Source of the DNA: a virus
Taxonomy: Duplodnaviria; Caudoviricetes
Strand: one strand, 5' to 3'
IMG/VR virus record: IMGVR_UViG_3300025126_000016
Location: 10,264 to 74,263 of that record
DNA length: 64,000 nt
Numbering within the stretch: position 1 is the first letter of the stretch; every line of letters starts with the position of its first letter. The position numbers and the translations under genes were made by a program. Positions 23,802 to 48,574 of this stretch are shown here, one piece after another. The notes below the pieces were generated by a model, which worked only from the letters and a program-made list of their open reading frames with translations, was not told the DNA's origin and made no database searches.

Positions 23802-23887
23802 TGGTGCGTCTGGGAGGACTCGAACCTCCAAAGGTATCTGTGTTTGAAACAGTGCCGTATTCCAGTTCCGACTTAGCCCACAGACGC
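23802..23887 (-). tRNA. trnL: tRNA-Leu(CAA), expanded D region and shortened variable arm
   Basis: GCGTCTG/CAGACGC acceptor, A73-CCA, loop TTCAAAC, T-arm GGAGG-TTCGAGT-CCTCC. Confidence 0.8.
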
Positions 23888-23892
23888 GAAAA

Positions 23893-23978
23893 TGGTAGGA
23901 GCGGCGAGACTCGAACTCGCAAAGGTCACCGCTTCTAAGGCGGCGGGGTATTCCATTTTCCACTTAGCCCACGCTCCC
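23893..23978 (-). tRNA. trnL: tRNA-Leu(TAG), expanded D region and shortened variable arm
   Basis: GGGAGCG/CGCTCCT acceptor, loop CTTAGAA, A73-CCA. Confidence 0.85.
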
Positions 23979-24182: not shown

Positions 24183-24239
24183 TGGAGGAGGGTAGAGGAA
24201 TCGAACCCCTAGGGATTTCAAGACCCGTTTGCACCCTCC
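24183..24239 (-). tRNA. 57-nt tRNA-Ser(TGA)-like RNA lacking D-arm and variable arm
   Basis: GGAGGGT/ACCCTCC acceptor, loop CTTGAAA, T-arm AGGGG-TTCGATT-CCTCT, U73-CCA; only about 5 nt between acceptor and anticodon stems. Confidence 0.75.
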
Positions 24240-40038: not shown

Positions 40039-40278
40039 ATGACCATCACTCGCGTATTCAAACCTCTGGAAGAAAAGACCAGAGAAGGACTGATTGAACA
40101 AATCAAGCGGATGCAGGACCGCGCTCATATGCAGAGAGCCACGCAAAACGCAGTGGAAAAGGCGTACCTGACCCGTCTGGCCAATTATCGTAAGGCTAAA
40201 GCTCTGGCCAATGAGAGAGCAGACAGGGCCGAGGCCGCAATGCGAGCCATGCTCGACAACTTTGGAGATATCGGATGA
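40039..40278 (+). CDS. Hypothetical coiled-coil protein
   Basis: GGAGG RBS before MTITRV. Confidence 0.6.
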   Translation: MTITRVFKPLEEKTREGLIEQIKRMQDRAHMQRATQNAVEKAYLTRLANYRKAKALANERADRAEAAMRAMLDNFGDIG

Positions 40279-41399
40279 TCGTACACCCCACAATCTACAA
40301 GTATGACACGAAAGGAAATTGCCGTGTCTGGCGAATGGAAATCGACGGAGCAAAATATAGGACCGTGGCGGGTATCGAAGGGGGAAGTTTGGTTGAATCT
40401 AAGTGGACCACTGCTAAGGGTAAGAACGTGGGACGAGCGAACGAAACTTCGCCCGAAGAACAGGCCGAGCTTGAGGTAGCCAGCAAGTACGAGAACAAGC
40501 TGAGCCGAGAGTATTCTGAAACGAAGGAAGCTGCCAAGTCTGGTGCTCACTTCTTCAAGCCGATGCTTGCCCAACCCTACAAGGGCCTACCCCTGTGGCA
40601 GGACCTTTATGTTCAGCCTAAGTTGGATGGAATGCGCTGCATCGCTACGAAGGATGGACTATTCTCTCGTCAGGGTAAGCCAATCCTTGGCTGTCCTCAC
40701 ATCTTTGAGGCGCTGGAAGCAGCCTTCAAGAAAGACCCGATGCTTATCATCGACGGTGAGCTTTACAACCATCACCTCAAGGACGACTTCCCTCGTCTCA
40801 TGAGCCTGTGCAAGAAGCAGGACCCAACTGACGAGCAGCTTGCTGAATCCGCAGAGCTTGTGGAATACTACGTATATGATTGCCCATCCAAAGCAGACTT
40901 CAAGTTTAGCACCAGGATGGTGTTTCTCTCACAAGCATTACAAGATGCTGGCATCAATACTGTAGATGATTATGGTCCTATTGTTCCGACCGCTACTTTG
41001 AAGATTACTTCGGACGACCCCGTGAAATTCTTCAATGACTTCCACGGCAAGTGCGTGGCCGCAGGACATGAAGGTTCGATGCTTCGACTCGACAAGCCTT
41101 ATGAACAGAAGCGGAGCAAGCATCTACTCAAGCGAAAGGATTTTCTGGATGATGAATTCGAAGTGGTTCGACTCGTTGAGGGCGAAGGCAACTGGTCTGG
41201 TGCTGTCAAGAGCGTACTCTGCCGAGCCAAGAACGGAAAAGAGTTTGGCTCAGGAGTTAAGGGAAGCCGAGAGTATGCCGAGTCTCTCATGGGAAGAGAT
41301 TTTAGCACTGCCAAGGTCCGATATTTTGAACTAACACCAGACGGTGTGCCGCGATTCGGCATCTGTCTTGAACTTTATGAAGGAGAACGTGATGATTAA
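40275..41399 (+). CDS. ATP-dependent DNA ligase
   Basis: KPMLA, QPKLDGMRC, IIDGELY, EGSML, KRSKHLLKRKDF, OB domain GVPRF. Confidence 0.93.
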   Translation: MIVHPTIYKYDTKGNCRVWRMEIDGAKYRTVAGIEGGSLVESKWTTAKGKNVGRANETSPEEQAELEVASKYENKLSREYSETKEAAKSGAHFFKPMLAQPYKGLPLWQDLYVQPKLDGMRCIATKDGLFSRQGKPILGCPHIFEALEAAFKKDPMLIIDGELYNHHLKDDFPRLMSLCKKQDPTDEQLAESAELVEYYVYDCPSKADFKFSTRMVFLSQALQDAGINTVDDYGPIVPTATLKITSDDPVKFFNDFHGKCVAAGHEGSMLRLDKPYEQKRSKHLLKRKDFLDDEFEVVRLVEGEGNWSGAVKSVLCRAKNGKEFGSGVKGSREYAESLMGRDFSTAKVRYFELTPDGVPRFGICLELYEGERDD

Positions 41400-42020: not shown

Positions 42021-42590
42021 CACTTGGAAACAGGTGCTGGAAGATATTCAGAAAGTGTGTCCCTCTGCCGTACTGGCAGGGGGCGCACTCCGAGACCTAG
42101 TGTTTGATGTCGAGGTCAAGGACTTGGATATCTTCATCGAAGCTGGCAATGAGAACGAAGCTTGGGGCAGTTTCAAAGCCTTGGGCGGGAAGATTCCTGA
42201 GCCTCAGAAAATTATGGGTGGCTTGTCCTGCATTGATGAGAGGGTGTCTACCCTCAGAGTATGCAGGAAGTTATCCTAGTCGAGGACTACGCAGGAGACA
42301 ACCCAACAGGTATCCCTATACAGTTGATCTTCGTTAACTGGAAAACGGAGCGCAGTCACGAACGGTTCGACATCGGCATCTGCCGTATCAGTTACGATGG
42401 AAGGGATGTCAGTATCTCCCGTGATTTCGAGCAAGATTCCTCGGATCAAGTGATCAACATCAGGCGGTGCGAAAATAAGTGGATGCTTGGTGCCACTATC
42501 AACAGGTATCTGAGATTGAAGAAGAAATATCCCGATTGGGAGATAAAATTGGATGGAGTAGACCTCAAGGAGGTTGACACTCATATCTGA
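42004..42590 (+). pseudogene. tRNA nucleotidyltransferase/poly(A) polymerase head-domain-like protein split into two overlapping frames
   Basis: GGALRD...KDLDIF in 42004-42279; RFDIGICRI and RYLRLKKKY in 42261-42590; -1 frame open from 42240. Confidence 0.7.
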
Positions 42591-42602
42591 TAGGCGTATA
42601 TG
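42574..42602 (+). promoter_or_regulatory. Sigma70-like promoter for tmRNA operon
   Basis: TTGACA-17 nt-TATATG. Confidence 0.75.
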
Positions 42603-42608
42603 CGCCGA

Positions 42609-42938
42609 ACCAGTCGCTTGAAGCGGCTTTGAAGTGAGGGCAAGACGCGGGGGCAGTACCCGCCGCCTCCACCAGATTGACTGATATGAGACCAATTGGA
42701 AAGTCTCTGCTAGGTCAAACCGGCGGGACGCAGGTTCAATTCCTGCTTTCAGTCAATCTGATGGGGGCGAACCAGGATCGATTGCCAAGCGGACGAGTTG
42801 TTAGGCTGTGAGCGTGGCTGCTTTGAAAAGCCAAGTTTGATAAATGCAAACGACAATGACATGCCAGTCATGAAAATGGCAATTGCGGCCTAATTAGGCA
42901 AAGCGGGGTCCAAAGGAACCTGTCAACAGAATCCCTTT
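42609..42938 (+). ncRNA. ssrA: Circularly permuted two-piece tmRNA (acceptor piece to 42674, coding piece from 42763), tag ANDNDMPVMKMAIAA
   Basis: GCGGG-GGCAGTA-CCCGC T-arm, CGCCTCC-ACCA; GGGGGCG with G3.U70; tag frame 42846-42893; alpha-type 3' element GCGGGGTCC...GGAACCTGTCAACAGAATCC. Confidence 0.92.
42680..42753 (+). ncRNA. tRNA-like cloverleaf within the tmRNA intervening segment
   Basis: ACTGATA/TTTCAGT stem, D-arm AGAC-CAATTGGAAA-GTCT, T-arm GCAGG-TTCAATT-CCTGC; imperfect anticodon arm, no CCA. Confidence 0.75.
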
Positions 42939-42966
42939 TAGTTTAACCAAGAGAAGGAATACCATT

Positions 42967-43113
42967 ATGAATCGTAAGTACGCAGTCCTTGGAGCAGCCG
43001 CTCTGGCCTTTGCCGTAGCAGCTTGTGAACCTGCTGAGGAGCAGGAAGAAGAAGTAGTAGTTGAAGCCGGTGGACCGGTTGACGCTGATGGAGCAGACGA
43101 AAATGCGAACTAA
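42967..43113 (+). CDS. Small acidic lipoprotein (48 aa)
   Basis: Hand translation MNRKYAVLGAAALAFAVAACEPAEEQEEEVVVEAGGPVDADGADENAN; lipobox VAAC; AAGGA RBS. Confidence 0.75.
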   Translation: MNRKYAVLGAAALAFAVAACEPAEEQEEEVVVEAGGPVDADGADENAN

Positions 43114-43579
43114 GATTGCCCTCATCGCTGGTGCCCTCGCCCTTGGCGTAGCTGCACCGGCCTCGGCCAATGAGTTTGGTGGCCTGTATGCCTCGGCAAC
43201 TGCCGGTGTGCAGGACGTAACTCAGGTTCCGACTGCTGACGACATCGTTTACGGTGCCAACGCCGGTGTCAACATTCCTCTGGGCGATGCAATCGTCGGC
43301 CTTGAGGCAACTGCTGACAACGTCTTCGAAGACAGCCGCGAAATCGGAGCCTCGGCCCGTCTCGGTTATACCTTCGACGACGTAATGCTGTATGGTGAAG
43401 CAGGCTACACCAACTACCGTGACGTATTCAGTCGTGAACTGGATGGTCTGCGTGTAGGTGCTGGCCTCGAATACAACATCAGCAACAACACTTTTGTGTC
43501 GGCTGAATACAGGTACACGGACTTCGAAGCTGGCGTTGGAAAACACGCTGGACTTGTTGGCCTCGGTATCCGCTTTTAA
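43103..43579 (+). CDS. Outer-membrane beta-barrel protein (OmpA/OmpW-like transmembrane domain)
   Basis: Signal peptide to APASA; amphipathic strands ARLGY, LYGEAGY, VGAGLEY, AEYRYTDF; C-terminal Phe. Confidence 0.88.
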   Translation: MRTKIALIAGALALGVAAPASANEFGGLYASATAGVQDVTQVPTADDIVYGANAGVNIPLGDAIVGLEATADNVFEDSREIGASARLGYTFDDVMLYGEAGYTNYRDVFSRELDGLRVGAGLEYNISNNTFVSAEYRYTDFEAGVGKHAGLVGLGIRF

Positions 43580-43601
43580 GTCGGCAACGACTTGTGTGTG
43601 G

Positions 43602-43631
43602 GAAAGGGGGCTTTTCAGCCCCCTTTCTTTT
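43602..43631 (+). terminator. Intrinsic terminator after OMP gene
   Basis: GAAAGGGGGCT/AGCCCCCTTTC stem plus T-tract. Confidence 0.8.
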
Positions 43632-43638
43632 GTCCAAT

Positions 43639-43720
43639 ACCCTCGTAACCAGTTCGGTCTTCTACACCGCTATCTGTAATGGAGTTGAAAATGTGGGTTC
43701 GAGTCGCACCTAGGGTTCCA
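43639..43720 (+). ncRNA. tRNA-like RNA with undetermined anticodon
   Basis: ACCCTCG/CTAGGGT acceptor, T-arm GTGGG-TTCGAGT-CGCAC, U73-CCA; core region non-canonical. Confidence 0.65.
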
Positions 43721-43915: not shown

Positions 43916-43991
43916 GCCGGATTAGCTCAGATGGCAGAGCAGCTGATTTGTAACCAGAAGGTCGTGGGTTCGATGCCTACATCCGGCACCA
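43916..43991 (+). tRNA. trnT: tRNA-Thr(TGT)
   Basis: Canonical cloverleaf, loop TTTGTAA, CCA. Confidence 0.93.
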
Positions 43992-43995
43992 GATT

Positions 43996-44070
43996 GCGGA
44001 AGTAGCTCAGTGGTAGAGCAGGTGGTTGAAGTTCACCGTGTCAGCGGTTCGATTCCATTCTTCTGCACCA
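43996..44070 (+). tRNA. trnF: tRNA-Phe(GAA)
   Basis: Loop TTGAAGT, A73-CCA. Confidence 0.85.
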
Positions 44071-44075
44071 GATAC

Positions 44076-44150
44076 GGGCCTGTAGCTTAATGGGAGAGCA
44101 GCATCCTTGCAAGATGTTAGGTGAGAGTTCGAATCTCTCTAGGTCCACCA
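44076..44150 (+). tRNA. trnA: tRNA-Ala(TGC)
   Basis: G3.U70, loop CTTGCAA, CCA. Confidence 0.93.
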
Positions 44151-44155
44151 GACAT

Positions 44156-44233
44156 GGCCCCGAGGTCCGAAGAGTCGAGGCCTCGCACTGTCTATGCGAG
44201 TTCAAGCGGGTTCGAGTCCCGCCGGGGTCGCCA
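44156..44233 (+). tRNA. trnD: tRNA-Asp(GTC)
   Basis: Loop CTGTCTA, G73-CCA. Confidence 0.88.
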
Positions 44234-44240
44234 TGTTTGA

Positions 44241-44313
44241 GCGGGTGTGGCTATGCTAGCCAGCTGGCCTTCCAAGCCATGCCAAGAGGGTTGGATTCCC
44301 TCCATCCGCTCCA
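44241..44313 (+). tRNA. trnG: tRNA-Gly(TCC), reduced D-loop
   Basis: Loop CTTCCAA, U73-CCA; D-arm GGCTA-TGC-TAGCC; T-loop TTGGATT. Confidence 0.8.
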
Positions 44314-44317
44314 ATGT

Positions 44318-44392
44318 TGCACGGTCGTCTAATCGGTAAGACGCTCGACTCTGACTCCTGAAACGTAGGTTCGAACCCTGCCCGTGCATCCA
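44318..44392 (+). tRNA. trnQ: tRNA-Gln(CTG)
   Basis: U1-A72, loop CTCTGAC, CCA. Confidence 0.85.
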
Positions 44393-44393
44393 C

Positions 44394-44467
44394 TGCCCCT
44401 TCGTCTAGTGGTAGGACCGGAGCCTTTGAAGCTTTTAACGCTGGTTCGAATCAAGCAGGGGCATCCA
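44394..44467 (+). tRNA. trnQ: tRNA-Gln(TTG)
   Basis: U1-A72, loop CTTTGAA, CCA. Confidence 0.85.
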
Positions 44468-44530
44468 GATTTTTACGAAAATTTTTCAGAAGATTTTGGG
44501 TCGAGTTTTAGAAAGGCAAAAGTTAGAGGG

Positions 44531-44559
44531 TTGACACCTAAAAAGACCTCGTCTATATG
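44531..44559 (+). promoter_or_regulatory. Sigma70-like promoter for leader plus Met/Asn/Pro/Trp/His tRNA operon
   Basis: TTGACA-17 nt-TATATG preceded by an AT-rich tract. Confidence 0.78.
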
Positions 44560-44635
44560 ACCCTCCACGGGCCGAGGGGATTCCCATCTCCTTAATGCGG
44601 TTTAACCACCCTCGGCCCACCTATTGGAGTTAGAA

Positions 44636-44722
44636 ATGCGTTACATGAATGTAAATCATTGGCGACCCAATACACACGCATGGGTGCGACATCCCATGCG
44701 TGAACAAGCTGTCGGCGGCTAA
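44636..44722 (+). CDS. Leader peptide MRYMNVNHWRPNTHAWVRHPMREQAVGG (candidate attenuator uORF)
   Basis: GGAG RBS at 44626; 28 codons, 13 Met/Asn/His/Trp/Pro; stop inside hairpin 22 nt before tRNA-Met. Confidence 0.7.
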   Translation: MRYMNVNHWRPNTHAWVRHPMREQAVGG

Positions 44723-44744
44723 CTAACTCCCGCCGATACTCTGT

Positions 44745-44820
44745 TGCAGAGTAGAGAAGCGGCATCTCACCACCCTCATAAGGTCGGAAACCGTGGGTTC
44801 GAGTCCCACCTCTGCAACCA
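44745..44820 (+). tRNA. trnM: tRNA-Met(CAT), initiator-like D-arm
   Basis: Loop CTCATAA, TGCAGAG/CTCTGCA acceptor, A73-CCA. Confidence 0.85.
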
Positions 44821-44837
44821 TTTCCCAAAATATATGT

Positions 44838-44912
44838 TGATGCGTAGCATAATGGCAATGTACGTCACTGTTAATGACGGGGATGCAGGTTCGAGTCCTG
44901 CCGTATCAGCCA
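44838..44912 (+). tRNA. trnN: tRNA-Asn(GTT)
   Basis: U1-A72, loop CTGTTAA, G73-CCA. Confidence 0.9.
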
Positions 44913-44913
44913 T

Positions 44914-44991
44914 CTAGGAGTAGCTCAGTCTGGCCAGAGCATCCCGTTTGGGGCGGGAGGGCCGAAGGTTCGAATCCTTCCTTCTAGACCA
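44914..44991 (+). tRNA. trnP: tRNA-Pro(TGG)
   Basis: C1-G72, loop TTTGGGG, A73-CCA. Confidence 0.92.
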
Positions 44992-44992
44992 C

Positions 44993-45067
44993 AGGTCGGA
45001 GCATACGGGTTATGCCTCTTGGACTCCAAATCCGAGAGAGAGGGTTCGATTCCCTCCCCTCCTGCCA
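44993..45067 (+). tRNA. trnW: tRNA-Trp(CCA)
   Basis: Loop CTCCAAA, G73-CCA; two acceptor-stem mismatches. Confidence 0.85.
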
Positions 45068-45074
45068 TTTTCTT

Positions 45075-45281
45075 CGAGCCTTTTCCGAGGGGCTGGGAGT
45101 GCCAGAGTAGCCTTGTAGACCAGAGGAGTAGTTATCCTGCTGCCGAATAGGTTCTGGTTCGTTGGTTGTAGACCGACATTGGAATGACGAGTAGAGCCTA
45201 AGAGCCTAACTAGCTTGGAAGCGAACTCGGGGTTCAGTGCCGCCAACGAGGTAAGACTCCCAGTCACGCGGAAAGGGCTTG
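45075..45281 (+). ncRNA. Unassigned structured RNA (about 210 nt) between tRNA-Trp and tRNA-His
   Basis: Closing stems GAGCCTTTTCCG/CGGAAAGGGCTT and GGCTGGGAGT/ACTCCCAGTC; inner helices ACCAGA/TCTGGT and TCGTTGG/CCAACGA; no useful ORF. Confidence 0.65.
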
Positions 45282-45291
45282 ATCACACGGT

Positions 45292-45363
45292 GTTGTTGGT
45301 GTTAATGGTAGCATGGCCGGATGTGACCCGGCAGGTGAGGGTTCGATTCCCCACTTCAACCCA
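45292..45363 (+). tRNA. trnH: tRNA-His(GTG), G-1:C73 type, imperfect acceptor
   Basis: GCCGG-ATGTGAC-CCGGC anticodon arm, T-loop TTCGATT, C73-CCA. Confidence 0.78.
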
Positions 45364-45842: not shown

Positions 45843-47225
45843 ATGATGATTGCCCTTCGTGACTATCAGGTAAACGACCTCGCTGTTGCGATCAAGAATC
45901 CCCGCAGCTTTAACTTCTCTGAACCAGGCACTGGTAAGACGCCAGTGTTCTGTGCCCTGTCGTGGTACTACTGGACGAAGAAGGGCAAGAAGACTATCAT
46001 CGTTCAGCCCAACCACCTTCGTAACAAGAATCGTCTCGAAGTTATTCGCTTCTCGGGATTCGAACCCCATGAAGTGAAAGTGATTGAGCGTCTGGACGAG
46101 ACCCTCGGACCTCGCAAGCGCAAGAGTGTGCCCGAGGCCAACCAACAGACTGGTTACATCAACTACATCGACGATCCTGAAATCAAAGTGTTCGTCGTTG
46201 GCTTTACGTTCCTGAAAAACTATTGGAAAGAGCTAGTAGAGAAGCACCCCGAGATTGATCTGGTAGTGATCGACGAAGGCCATGAAGGCTACAAGACCTA
46301 CAACAGTAAGGCCAGCCGTGAACTCTATGCTCTCATGGATAGGACGGAAGGCTTTTACTATTGCACGGGTACGCCTATTGATGGTCGCCTCGACTCTTGC
46401 TTCACTGCTATCCATATTGTCTGCCCTCAATACTACGGCAGCTACCTTGGATTCAGGGCGCAGCATGCTGGTTTCATCGACGACTACGACAAGGTGGTGT
46501 TCTGGCAGAACGAGGAGAAAGTGACAGAAATCTTCAATCGTCACGGTGTCATTCATACGTGGGAAGAAGTCCACGGTGAAGAGAAGCGCCATGTTGAAAT
46601 CGTGGACGACATCAAGATGAATGAGAAGATGCTGGAAGCTTATACCGAGTTCGAAGAAATGGCCTGTGTCGAGCTTGAGGGTATGTTCCTCGACGGAAGT
46701 AATCCCGGAGTTGCAACGATGCGAGCGAGGCAGATCATTAACTGCCCACATATCTTTGACATCAAGGAACGCACAGCCAAGCATGATTACCTTGAAGGGT
46801 TGGCTCAGCCGGGTATGGTTGTGTTCGGGTCGATGCCTGAGGAAGTTGAAGCCAACGCCGAAATCCTGCGAGAGCTAGGATTGTCGGTCGGGGTAATGCA
46901 CGGAGGGGTGAGCAATGCCAAGCGCGTAGAGATTGATCGTGCCTACGTAGCTGGTGAGCTTGACGTTATCTGTGCAACCCCGGCCGTGGCCGCGACTGGT
47001 TGGAACTGGCAGCGGACCAAGATCATCGTGTTCACTTCGCTGTCCTACAGCGACTCCAATGTTGAACAGGCTATCAAGCGAGGAGAGCGAGAGGCTCGGG
47101 ATGAACATCTGCAAGTCTACTTCCTTGAGTATCTAAAGAGTGTGGACCAGAAGGTCCGTAAGATCGTGGTGAAGAAAGAAAACCTGAGCCATACGGTTAT
47201 GGAAAATGTGAAAGGATTGAGCTAA
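45843..47225 (+). CDS. SF2 (SNF2-like) DNA helicase
   Basis: EPGTGKT Walker A, VIDEGH, TGTP, ATGWNWQ and EQAIKRGER motifs. Confidence 0.92.
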   Translation: MMIALRDYQVNDLAVAIKNPRSFNFSEPGTGKTPVFCALSWYYWTKKGKKTIIVQPNHLRNKNRLEVIRFSGFEPHEVKVIERLDETLGPRKRKSVPEANQQTGYINYIDDPEIKVFVVGFTFLKNYWKELVEKHPEIDLVVIDEGHEGYKTYNSKASRELYALMDRTEGFYYCTGTPIDGRLDSCFTAIHIVCPQYYGSYLGFRAQHAGFIDDYDKVVFWQNEEKVTEIFNRHGVIHTWEEVHGEEKRHVEIVDDIKMNEKMLEAYTEFEEMACVELEGMFLDGSNPGVATMRARQIINCPHIFDIKERTAKHDYLEGLAQPGMVVFGSMPEEVEANAEILRELGLSVGVMHGGVSNAKRVEIDRAYVAGELDVICATPAVAATGWNWQRTKIIVFTSLSYSDSNVEQAIKRGEREARDEHLQVYFLEYLKSVDQKVRKIVVKKENLSHTVMENVKGLS

Positions 47226-48522: not shown

Positions 48523-48551
48523 TTGACAAGACCTAGAGCCAAACTCTATAG
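48523..48551 (+). promoter_or_regulatory. Sigma70-like promoter
   Basis: TTGACA-17 nt-CTATAG. Confidence 0.6.
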
Positions 48552-48574
48552 GCCCTGACCCGAAAGGAAATCTG

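Follow-up and report, generated by a model that had tools for sequence, protein, structure and literature searches.

Results

The tmRNA Locus and Its Surroundings

The window (the whole stretch of DNA that was analyzed, 64,000 nucleotides long) is the part from 10264 to 74263 of an IMG/VR virus record of 74 kb, the completeness of which is estimated at 88%. The phage is uncultured; aquifer metagenomes from 2017 contain it in at least 19 runs, and no RNA run is among those listed for the locus. In four aquifer runs, Logan contigs aligned over 42400-43400 represent the same strain and show no differences in the spacer described below.

A circularly permuted tmRNA gene lies among phage replication genes (ligase, helicase) and runs in the order acceptor piece, spacer, coding piece (Table 1). 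Both permuted-tmRNA models of Rfam matched it above the gathering cut-off: alpha_tmRNA (RF01849) at 42570-42940 with 100.6 bits (cut-off 50) and tmRNA_permuted (RF04321) at 42613-42893 with 94.4 bits (cut-off 47). The acceptor piece carries an alpha-type T arm, GCGGG-GGCAGTA-CCCGC, and the 3′ acceptor strand CGCCTCC, followed by ACCA. The acceptor stem (GGGGGCG/CGCCTCC) contains G3.U70, CCA is encoded, and the tag frame is terminated by a stop codon. Many other permuted tmRNAs of IMG/VR share the 31-nt stretch of T arm and acceptor letter for letter, and tmRNA sequence identity did not single out the lineage to which the gene is closest. Among cultured phages, the tmRNA region had no match.

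The Caulobacter-type two-piece tmRNA of Alphaproteobacteria was reportedly described by Keiler, Shapiro and Williams in 2000. The gene in the window shares with the alphaproteobacterial tmRNA of RF01849/RF04321 the gene order, the T loop GGCAGUA, the G3.U70 acceptor and a tag of the form ANDN..., but it is phage-encoded, stands ahead of a tRNA array and contains an 88-nt tRNA-shaped spacer.

The motif TTGACA-N16-18-TATANG has three matches in the window, against 0.05 expected. A generic sigma-70 scan did not flag the copy at 42574-42602. Judging from its consensus and placement, the shared motif may be the promoter type that this phage uses for stable-RNA operons.

Table 1. Positions of the tmRNA gene, its spacer and neighboring features in the window
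Feature	Positions	Strand	Evidence or remarks
tRNA genes or tRNA-like elements missed by default ARAGORN	23802-23978, 24183-24239	-	46.8, 38.3 and 22.7 bits
ATP-dependent DNA ligase gene	40275-41399		Upstream of tmRNA
Promoter-like motif TTGACA-N17-TATATG	42574-42602	+	Directly upstream of tmRNA acceptor piece; consensus match only
tmRNA acceptor piece	42613-42674	+	RF04321 and RF01849 alignments; ends ...CGCCTCCACCA at 42674
Closing helix, 5′ strand CAGATTGACTGA	42673-42684	+	Takes in CA of CCA; pair probabilities 0.88-1.0, minimum-energy precursor fold
Intervening segment, 88 nt	42675-42762	+	Between CCA (end 42674) and G1 (42763); absent from mature tmRNA
tRNA-shaped element	42680-42755	+	Rfam tRNA, R1, ARAGORN -ps80
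Acceptor of element	42680-42686/42747-42753	+	
D arm of element	42689-42706	+	
Defective anticodon arm of element	42707-42726	+	
T arm of element	42730-42746	+	
Closing helix, 3′ strand TCAGTCAATCTG	42749-42760	+	Precursor fold and pair probabilities
TGAT leader	42759-42762	+	Directly 5′ of tmRNA G1; U at -1
tmRNA coding piece	42763-42940	+	Begins GGGGGCGAA at G42763 (G1); 5′ acceptor strand GGGGGCG
Tag reading frame	42846-42893	+	Encodes ANDNDMPVMKMAIAA, then stop
Sub-threshold tRNA-like element with encoded CCA	43639-43720	+	R1 22.7 bits
tRNA gene array	43916-45363		3′ of tmRNA
tRNA gene or tRNA-like element missed by default ARAGORN	44241-44313	+	Rfam 31.8 bits, R1 40.6 bits
Other copies of promoter-like motif	44531-44559 (before tRNA operon), 48523-48552	+	
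Helicase gene	45843-47225		Downstream of tmRNA

Two small ORFs with signal-peptide-like N termini, 42967-43113 and 43061-43579 (+), follow the tmRNA and precede the tRNA array; one encodes a lipoprotein-like product of 48 aa, the other a product of 172 aa with 82% identity to its homologue in the related phage L122. Both may be co-transcribed with the tmRNA. The sub-threshold element at 43639-43720, not called by ARAGORN, directly follows a terminator-like hairpin (~43601-43632) upstream of the array. In contigs of aquifer run X18, other tmRNA genes of the community were seen with the same 28-34 nt end of the tRNA-like domain (42649-42676, 2 mismatches). Their spacer letters differ from those of the window, with 23 letters between the sides of the joint that form a short hairpin, and the organisms from which they derive may be candidate hosts.

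The Spacer Contains a Degenerate tRNA-Shaped Element

A sequence-only reading of this DNA had placed a complete tRNA cloverleaf in the 88-nt spacer. The spacer, with the features ascribed to it, was borne out by the Rfam tmRNA matches and the spacer analysis. For the tRNA models the spacer was searched alone; in a joint search, the tRNA match is masked by clan competition with the tmRNA model. Rfam tRNA (RF00005) then matched 42680-42754 over model positions 1-71 with 25.1 bits, below its 29-bit gathering cut-off and with the anticodon arm bypassed by a local end. A covariance model built here from 90 phage tRNAs (R1) aligned all four arms at 42680-42755, full length, with 20.7 bits. Outside tRNA genes, the next R1 matches in the 3-kb neighborhood reached 7 bits at most, and over the 64-kb window only tRNA genes and three tRNA-like hits were found at E 1 or better. 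Chance as the source of the tRNA resemblance was ruled out by the covariance-model scores against the window-wide background. ARAGORN did not call the element at default thresholds; it was called only at 80% thresholds (-ps80), where 30 of 12,100 shuffled spacers (0.25%) scored as well.

In the R1 alignment and the ARAGORN drawing, the acceptor, D and T arms are canonically spaced, with G18G19 and a TTCRANN T loop. The 7-bp acceptor is made up of six pairs and one U.U, U8 is present, the 4-bp D stem (42689-42692/42703-42706) closes the GG-containing loop CAAUUGGAAA, and the T arm GCAGG-TTCAATT-CCTGC is perfect, with the loop UUCAAUU. In place of the normal 5-bp stem and 7-nt loop, the anticodon arm has two G-C pairs, two G.U pairs and one A/C mismatch below an 8-nt loop, which folds preferentially into a 3-bp stem with a triloop. 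CCA is encoded in all 13 plus-strand tRNA genes checked; the spacer element has none and continues AATCTGAT. R1 scores of the array tRNAs were 36-71 bits, compared with 20.7 bits for the element.

The D-loop GG, the T arm, the imperfect anticodon stem and the missing CCA had all been reported correctly in the sequence-only reading. Its canonical spacing holds for the arms as placed, but the variable region measures 4 nt, not 5. The complete cloverleaf holds insofar as all arms can be aligned; with a weak anticodon arm, one acceptor U.U and a disfavored D stem, it is a tRNA-shaped element and not a tRNA gene. A protein-coding reading, by way of a 44-codon ORF that runs through the spacer (42677-42811, +), was considered and rejected: the ORF lacks a Shine-Dalgarno sequence and matches no PHROG.

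Nearest-neighbor energies make the closing helix, the middle stem and the T arm near-certain. The D stem is thermodynamically disfavored in the spacer alone (pair probability ~0.03), and the cloverleaf is less stable than the minimum-energy fold by 2.6 kcal/mol. The closing helix, CAGAUUGACUGA/UCAGUCAAUCUG, is a perfect 12-bp duplex that pairs the CA of the tmRNA CCA. Stacked on the tmRNA acceptor stem, it forms a helix of ~21 bp with one C/A mismatch.

Closing Helices Are Standard in Long Phage Spacers

A pattern scan of IMG/VR with CCTCCACCA-N70-100-GGGGGCGAA returned at least 105 further distinct spacers, or 106 with that of the window. Among the matches listed, a closing helix of at least 8 bp was present in 96 of the 105 other long phage spacers (median 11 bp); these helices start 0-1 nt after the CCA and end 4-5 nt before G1. 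TGAT ends 92 of the 106 spacers listed, that of the window included. Among these matches, both counts mark the extension of the helix and the pairing of the CCA as generic; they are the standard architecture of long phage permuted-tmRNA spacers and not special to this gene. The extension of the stem into the tmRNA acceptor with the CCA paired, as the sequence-only reading had it, is thus real in the form of a 12-bp helix that pairs CA, but it does not set this gene apart.

The IMG/VR loci L002-L121 share a common plan: a closing helix of ~11 bp encloses a structured interior that varies, and TGAT is conserved ahead of G1. The interiors of the long phage spacers are mutually unrelated. With R1, a whole-tRNA-like spacer was found in none of 95 long-spacer loci among the matches listed; R1 hits of 15-26 bits at these loci all end, where coordinates could be checked, at the tmRNA's own CCA.

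The same helix architecture was observed in some cellular Alphaproteobacteria. The cellular sample comprised 151 Alphaproteobacteria genomes, including one unpublished genome (G041) on which no result depends. In this sample RF04321 match spans were mostly 190-240 nt, compared with 281 nt here, and no tRNA-like spacer was found in the 19 longest matches. Long structured spacers are a minority among the sampled genomes, in agreement with the earlier statement that intervening segments are usually short. Neither degenerate tRNA-shaped spacers nor the architecture of closing helix and TGAT were found described in the accessible literature.

Whole tRNA-Like Spacers Are Rare but Recurrent

Among the matches listed, two of the 105 other, unselected spacers contain the T-arm 11-mer GGTTCRANTCC, where base frequencies would predict 0.017. 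T-arm-like hairpins with a stem of at least 4 bp occurred in 3 of the 106 unselected long spacers listed, compared with 0.29 in shuffles, a modest enrichment. In ~23 distinct phage spacers retrieved by a scan targeted at GGTTCRANTCC, the closing helix is adjoined by a T-arm hairpin or by two of them. Two spacers from this targeted scan gave whole-cloverleaf matches with a crippled anticodon arm: L151 (25.2 bits, 5-nt loop) and L199 (17.9 bits, 39-nt insert). Whole tRNA-like spacers are therefore rare but recurrent. In a family of T-arm-bearing spacers, F1 (L160, L200, L209, L210, L228), compensatory substitutions were observed in the closing helix and the first hairpin.

The spacers of L181, L201 and L230 each have a pair of T-arm-like hairpins, such as GGTGG-TTCGATT-CCACC and GAGG-TTCGATT-CCTC. 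A near-identical tmRNA spacer with a tRNA-Cys-like fold was seen in an IMG/VR viral contig (L063) and in a Lysobacterales MAG (L301); the latter contig is probably a prophage or a misbinned phage.

The Insert Is Absent from the Closest Relatives

A search with the ligase led to 12 related viral loci, of which only the two closest, L122 (79% identity) and L123 (69%), were found to have a tmRNA. In both it is syntenic, between orthologous genes and ahead of the tRNA array, and the spacers are GTTAT (5 nt) in L122 and TAAT (4 nt) in L123. The last four spacer letters before G1 read TTAT, TAAT and TGAT in L122, L123 and the window, respectively. When 42676-42758 is taken out of the spacer, G+TGAT remains, close to the GTTAT of L122; by comparison with both relatives, the spacer consists of a residual spacer G...TGAT and an 83-nt insert, 42676-42758. 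A metagenome scan with the ligase for closer relatives gave only L252, with tmRNA and spacer identical to those of L122, and truncated contigs.

The ligase tree, rooted on nine relatives with no tmRNA found near the ligase, has the topology (L123,(own,L122)) with support 99/97. Given this topology and the 4-5 nt spacers of the sister phages, the parsimonious reading is that the 83-nt insert was gained once, in the lineage of this phage. The sequence-only reading had considered a relic of the permutation event; both the spacers of 4-5 nt at the syntenic position in the nearest phages and the later gain indicated by the ligase tree speak against such a relic. The segment is also unconserved, the insert being absent from L122 and L123.

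The T loop within 42643-42674 is the alphaproteobacterial GGCAGUA, and the sisters L122 and L123 have a canonical TTCRANN loop at the syntenic gene. This contrast suggests recombination or conversion of the tRNA-like domain at the tmRNA locus. The ligase tree may therefore differ from the true history of this locus.

Two IMG/VR pattern scans and BLAST against ~380 loci revealed no significant homologue of the insert, and in cultured phages the only matches, none of them significant, were to the T arms of tRNAs of mixed isotype. Aligned globally to 521 tRNAs that ARAGORN had called in the loci, the insert showed only generic T-arm similarity, which pointed to no parent tRNA. Neither a paralogue nor a free-standing copy of the insert was found in these searches. 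None of the relatives found carries the insert.

Discussion

Comparison with Known Systems

The two-piece circularly permuted tmRNA of Alphaproteobacteria is of the Caulobacter type, as relayed in part through PMC3978253. One intact tRNA-Ala has been described in the intervening sequence of a permuted tmRNA, a high-scoring tRNA from a nominally archaeal MAG, and was called unique among the sequences of that study (Nawrocki, Petrov, Williams and co-authors 2025, PMC11915505). In the pipeline of the same study, tmRNA calls overlapped by strong tRNA hits were rejected unless the gene was clearly permuted (PMC11915505). In both cases a tRNA-type unit lies inside the permuted gene, after the CCA that ends the acceptor piece and before G1, with which the coding piece begins. 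The unit in the window, in contrast, scores 25 bits, lacks an anticodon loop and CCA, and is phage-borne and enclosed in a 12-bp closing helix; it is a degenerate tRNA-like element and not a high-scoring intact tRNA.

The position of the element also invites comparison with the tRNA array of the phage itself. The inter-tRNA spacers of this array are 4-5 nt long and start with GA (GATT, GATAC, GACAT). The tmRNA CCA is likewise followed by GATTG and then by +1 of the tRNA-like fold, and the tmRNA and a tRNA operon are preceded by copies of one promoter-like motif. With the array-like spacing CCA-GATTG-(+1), the element is placed in the precursor as a further unit of the tRNA array would be. The spacer unit differs from the array tRNAs in its lower R1 score, in the lack of CCA and in having both leader and trailer paired.

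tRNA-like folds serve as processing signals in several other settings, as in the tRNA punctuation of mitochondrial transcripts, the t-elements of plant mitochondria and the release of mascRNA from MALAT1. Shared with these signals is a non-decoding tRNA-shaped fold within a longer precursor, which could direct cuts by RNase P or RNase Z. Those signals are eukaryotic or organellar and were shown by experiment, whereas cleavage here would be a prediction for an element that is unconserved. The Rfam model of mascRNA (RF01684) had no match in the spacer.

Origin and Processing of the Insert

We lean toward the view that the insert is tRNA-derived optional cargo, presumably excised by tRNA-processing enzymes and dispensable for maturation of the tmRNA. 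An ancestral spacer of ~5 nt (G...TGAT) would have received a lineage-specific insert of 83 nt, a degenerate tRNA-derived RNA in which the acceptor/T-arm stack and the D arm with its GG would have been kept, with neither a usable anticodon loop nor CCA. The element would thereby be placed as an extra unit of a tRNA array, [acceptor piece...CCA]-GAUUG-[tRNA-like]-AAUCUGAU-[G1 coding piece]. It would be a passenger in a spacer that tolerates inserts, and would not act as a decoding tRNA.

The 5′ ends of tmRNA are made by RNase P and the 3′ ends by exonucleolytic trimming. On the optional-cargo reading, RNase P would cut 5′ of the tmRNA G1, where the U at -1 is conserved, and a second time where the tRNA-like fold begins, ~5 nt past the CCA. 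The resulting trailer of 4-5 nt, as in the relatives, would then be trimmed back to the CCA by 3′ exonucleases. The geometry of the 5′ end of the element is compatible with RNase P cleavage. The RNase P route is weakened by the 5′ leader of the tRNA-like fold, in which pairing continues for 7 more bp, and RNAs with a paired leader are usually inferior RNase P substrates. Nearest-neighbor energies, which do not favor the D stem, also speak against the optional-cargo reading. Alternatively, RNase III or RNase E could act on the 21-bp coaxial helix.

The uneven decay of the element here and in L151 and L199 hints that a tRNA body, once present, is kept, either for excision or for a use of the excised RNA. 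That the body is kept by selection, as an RNase P handle that frees the CCA or as a released tRNA mimic acting on host tRNA-binding or tRNA-targeting proteins, we regard as rather unlikely. The form in which the tRNA-shaped fold is a selected processing handle, recruiting RNase P (or RNase Z or the CCA-adding enzyme) to a long spacer and freeing the CCA, would make the element necessary for this gene and not for tmRNA genes generally. The pattern of preservation agrees with it, with 6 of 7 acceptor pairs (12 of 12 in the extended register), 4 of 4 in the D stem, 5 of 5 in the T stem and canonical loops next to a crippled anticodon arm, and the same decay pattern recurs in L151 and L199. The predicted +1 lies 5 nt past the CCA, equal to the trailer length of the relatives, and the T-arm-bearing spacers of family F1, in other phage lineages, keep their hairpins by compensatory changes. 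This handle is nonetheless unlikely, given that none of the 95 long-spacer loci scanned, among the matches listed, has a tRNA-like fold and that 4-5 nt suffice in the sisters. The relatives without the element indicate that tmRNA as such does not need it, and for the same reason a processing guide, one of the roles proposed in the sequence-only reading, is improbable as a required part: the relatives manage with spacers of 4-5 nt. As to a released product, the intact D loop (GG) and T loop (TTCAATT) could form an elbow, and the position inside a strongly expressed stable-RNA precursor would favor a stable small RNA of ~76-83 nt that acts in trans, as a decoy for host tRNA-binding or tRNA-cleaving defense proteins or for tRNA-modifying enzymes. 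Such a role is quite unlikely for an element that has no CCA and is unconserved, with no significant homologue in ~380 loci, two IMG/VR pattern scans and cultured phages.

On a different view of its origin, the insert would be what remains of an earlier acceptor piece or of the permutation, its T arm stemming from a former tRNA-like domain displaced by the upstream alpha-type acceptor piece. MAFFT does align the GGAC-T-arm of the spacer with the genuine tmRNA T arms of the sisters, 16 nt separate the T stem from G1 in the spacer and in the sisters alike, and the functional T loop is alpha-type here and canonical there. Outside the T arm, however, the similarity is not significant (local alignments, z ~2.5), and the 3′ strand of the spacer is complementary to its own 5′ end (12/12) and not to G1-G7. 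The element moreover has a D arm, whereas tRNA-like domains of tmRNA have no D stem, and parsimony on the ligase tree favors a later gain; taken together, these observations make such a relic very unlikely. It is barely credible that the element works in decoding as a tRNA whose anticodon loop is expanded to 8 nt, reading for instance frameshifts or quadruplets. Relaxed ARAGORN does draw a cloverleaf with an 8-nt loop and reads "tcaa", but the score is under the Rfam tRNA cut-off, the anticodon stem is weak and its loop prefers the 3-bp stem with triloop, CCA is missing where every other tRNA checked encodes it, and the acceptor has neither G3.U70 nor any other alanine-type identity feature.

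Implications

The spacers of permuted tmRNA genes are treated as discarded filler in the accessible literature. Taken alone, the locus described here is a modest result, a single degenerate element that is unconserved. It is, however, among several which show that phage tmRNA spacers accept tRNA-derived inserts behaving as extra members of an array. As a practical matter for annotation, tRNA finders can hit inside tmRNA genes, and pipelines discarding tmRNA calls overlapped by tRNAs may lose such genes. Were the tRNA body to prove selected, it would reveal either a rule for the removal of long spacers, by two RNase P cuts and trimming, or a new kind of phage tRNA-mimic RNA. If so, this locus together with L151 and L199 would represent a recurrent, previously undescribed class of phage "tRNA-body" RNAs in tmRNA spacers.
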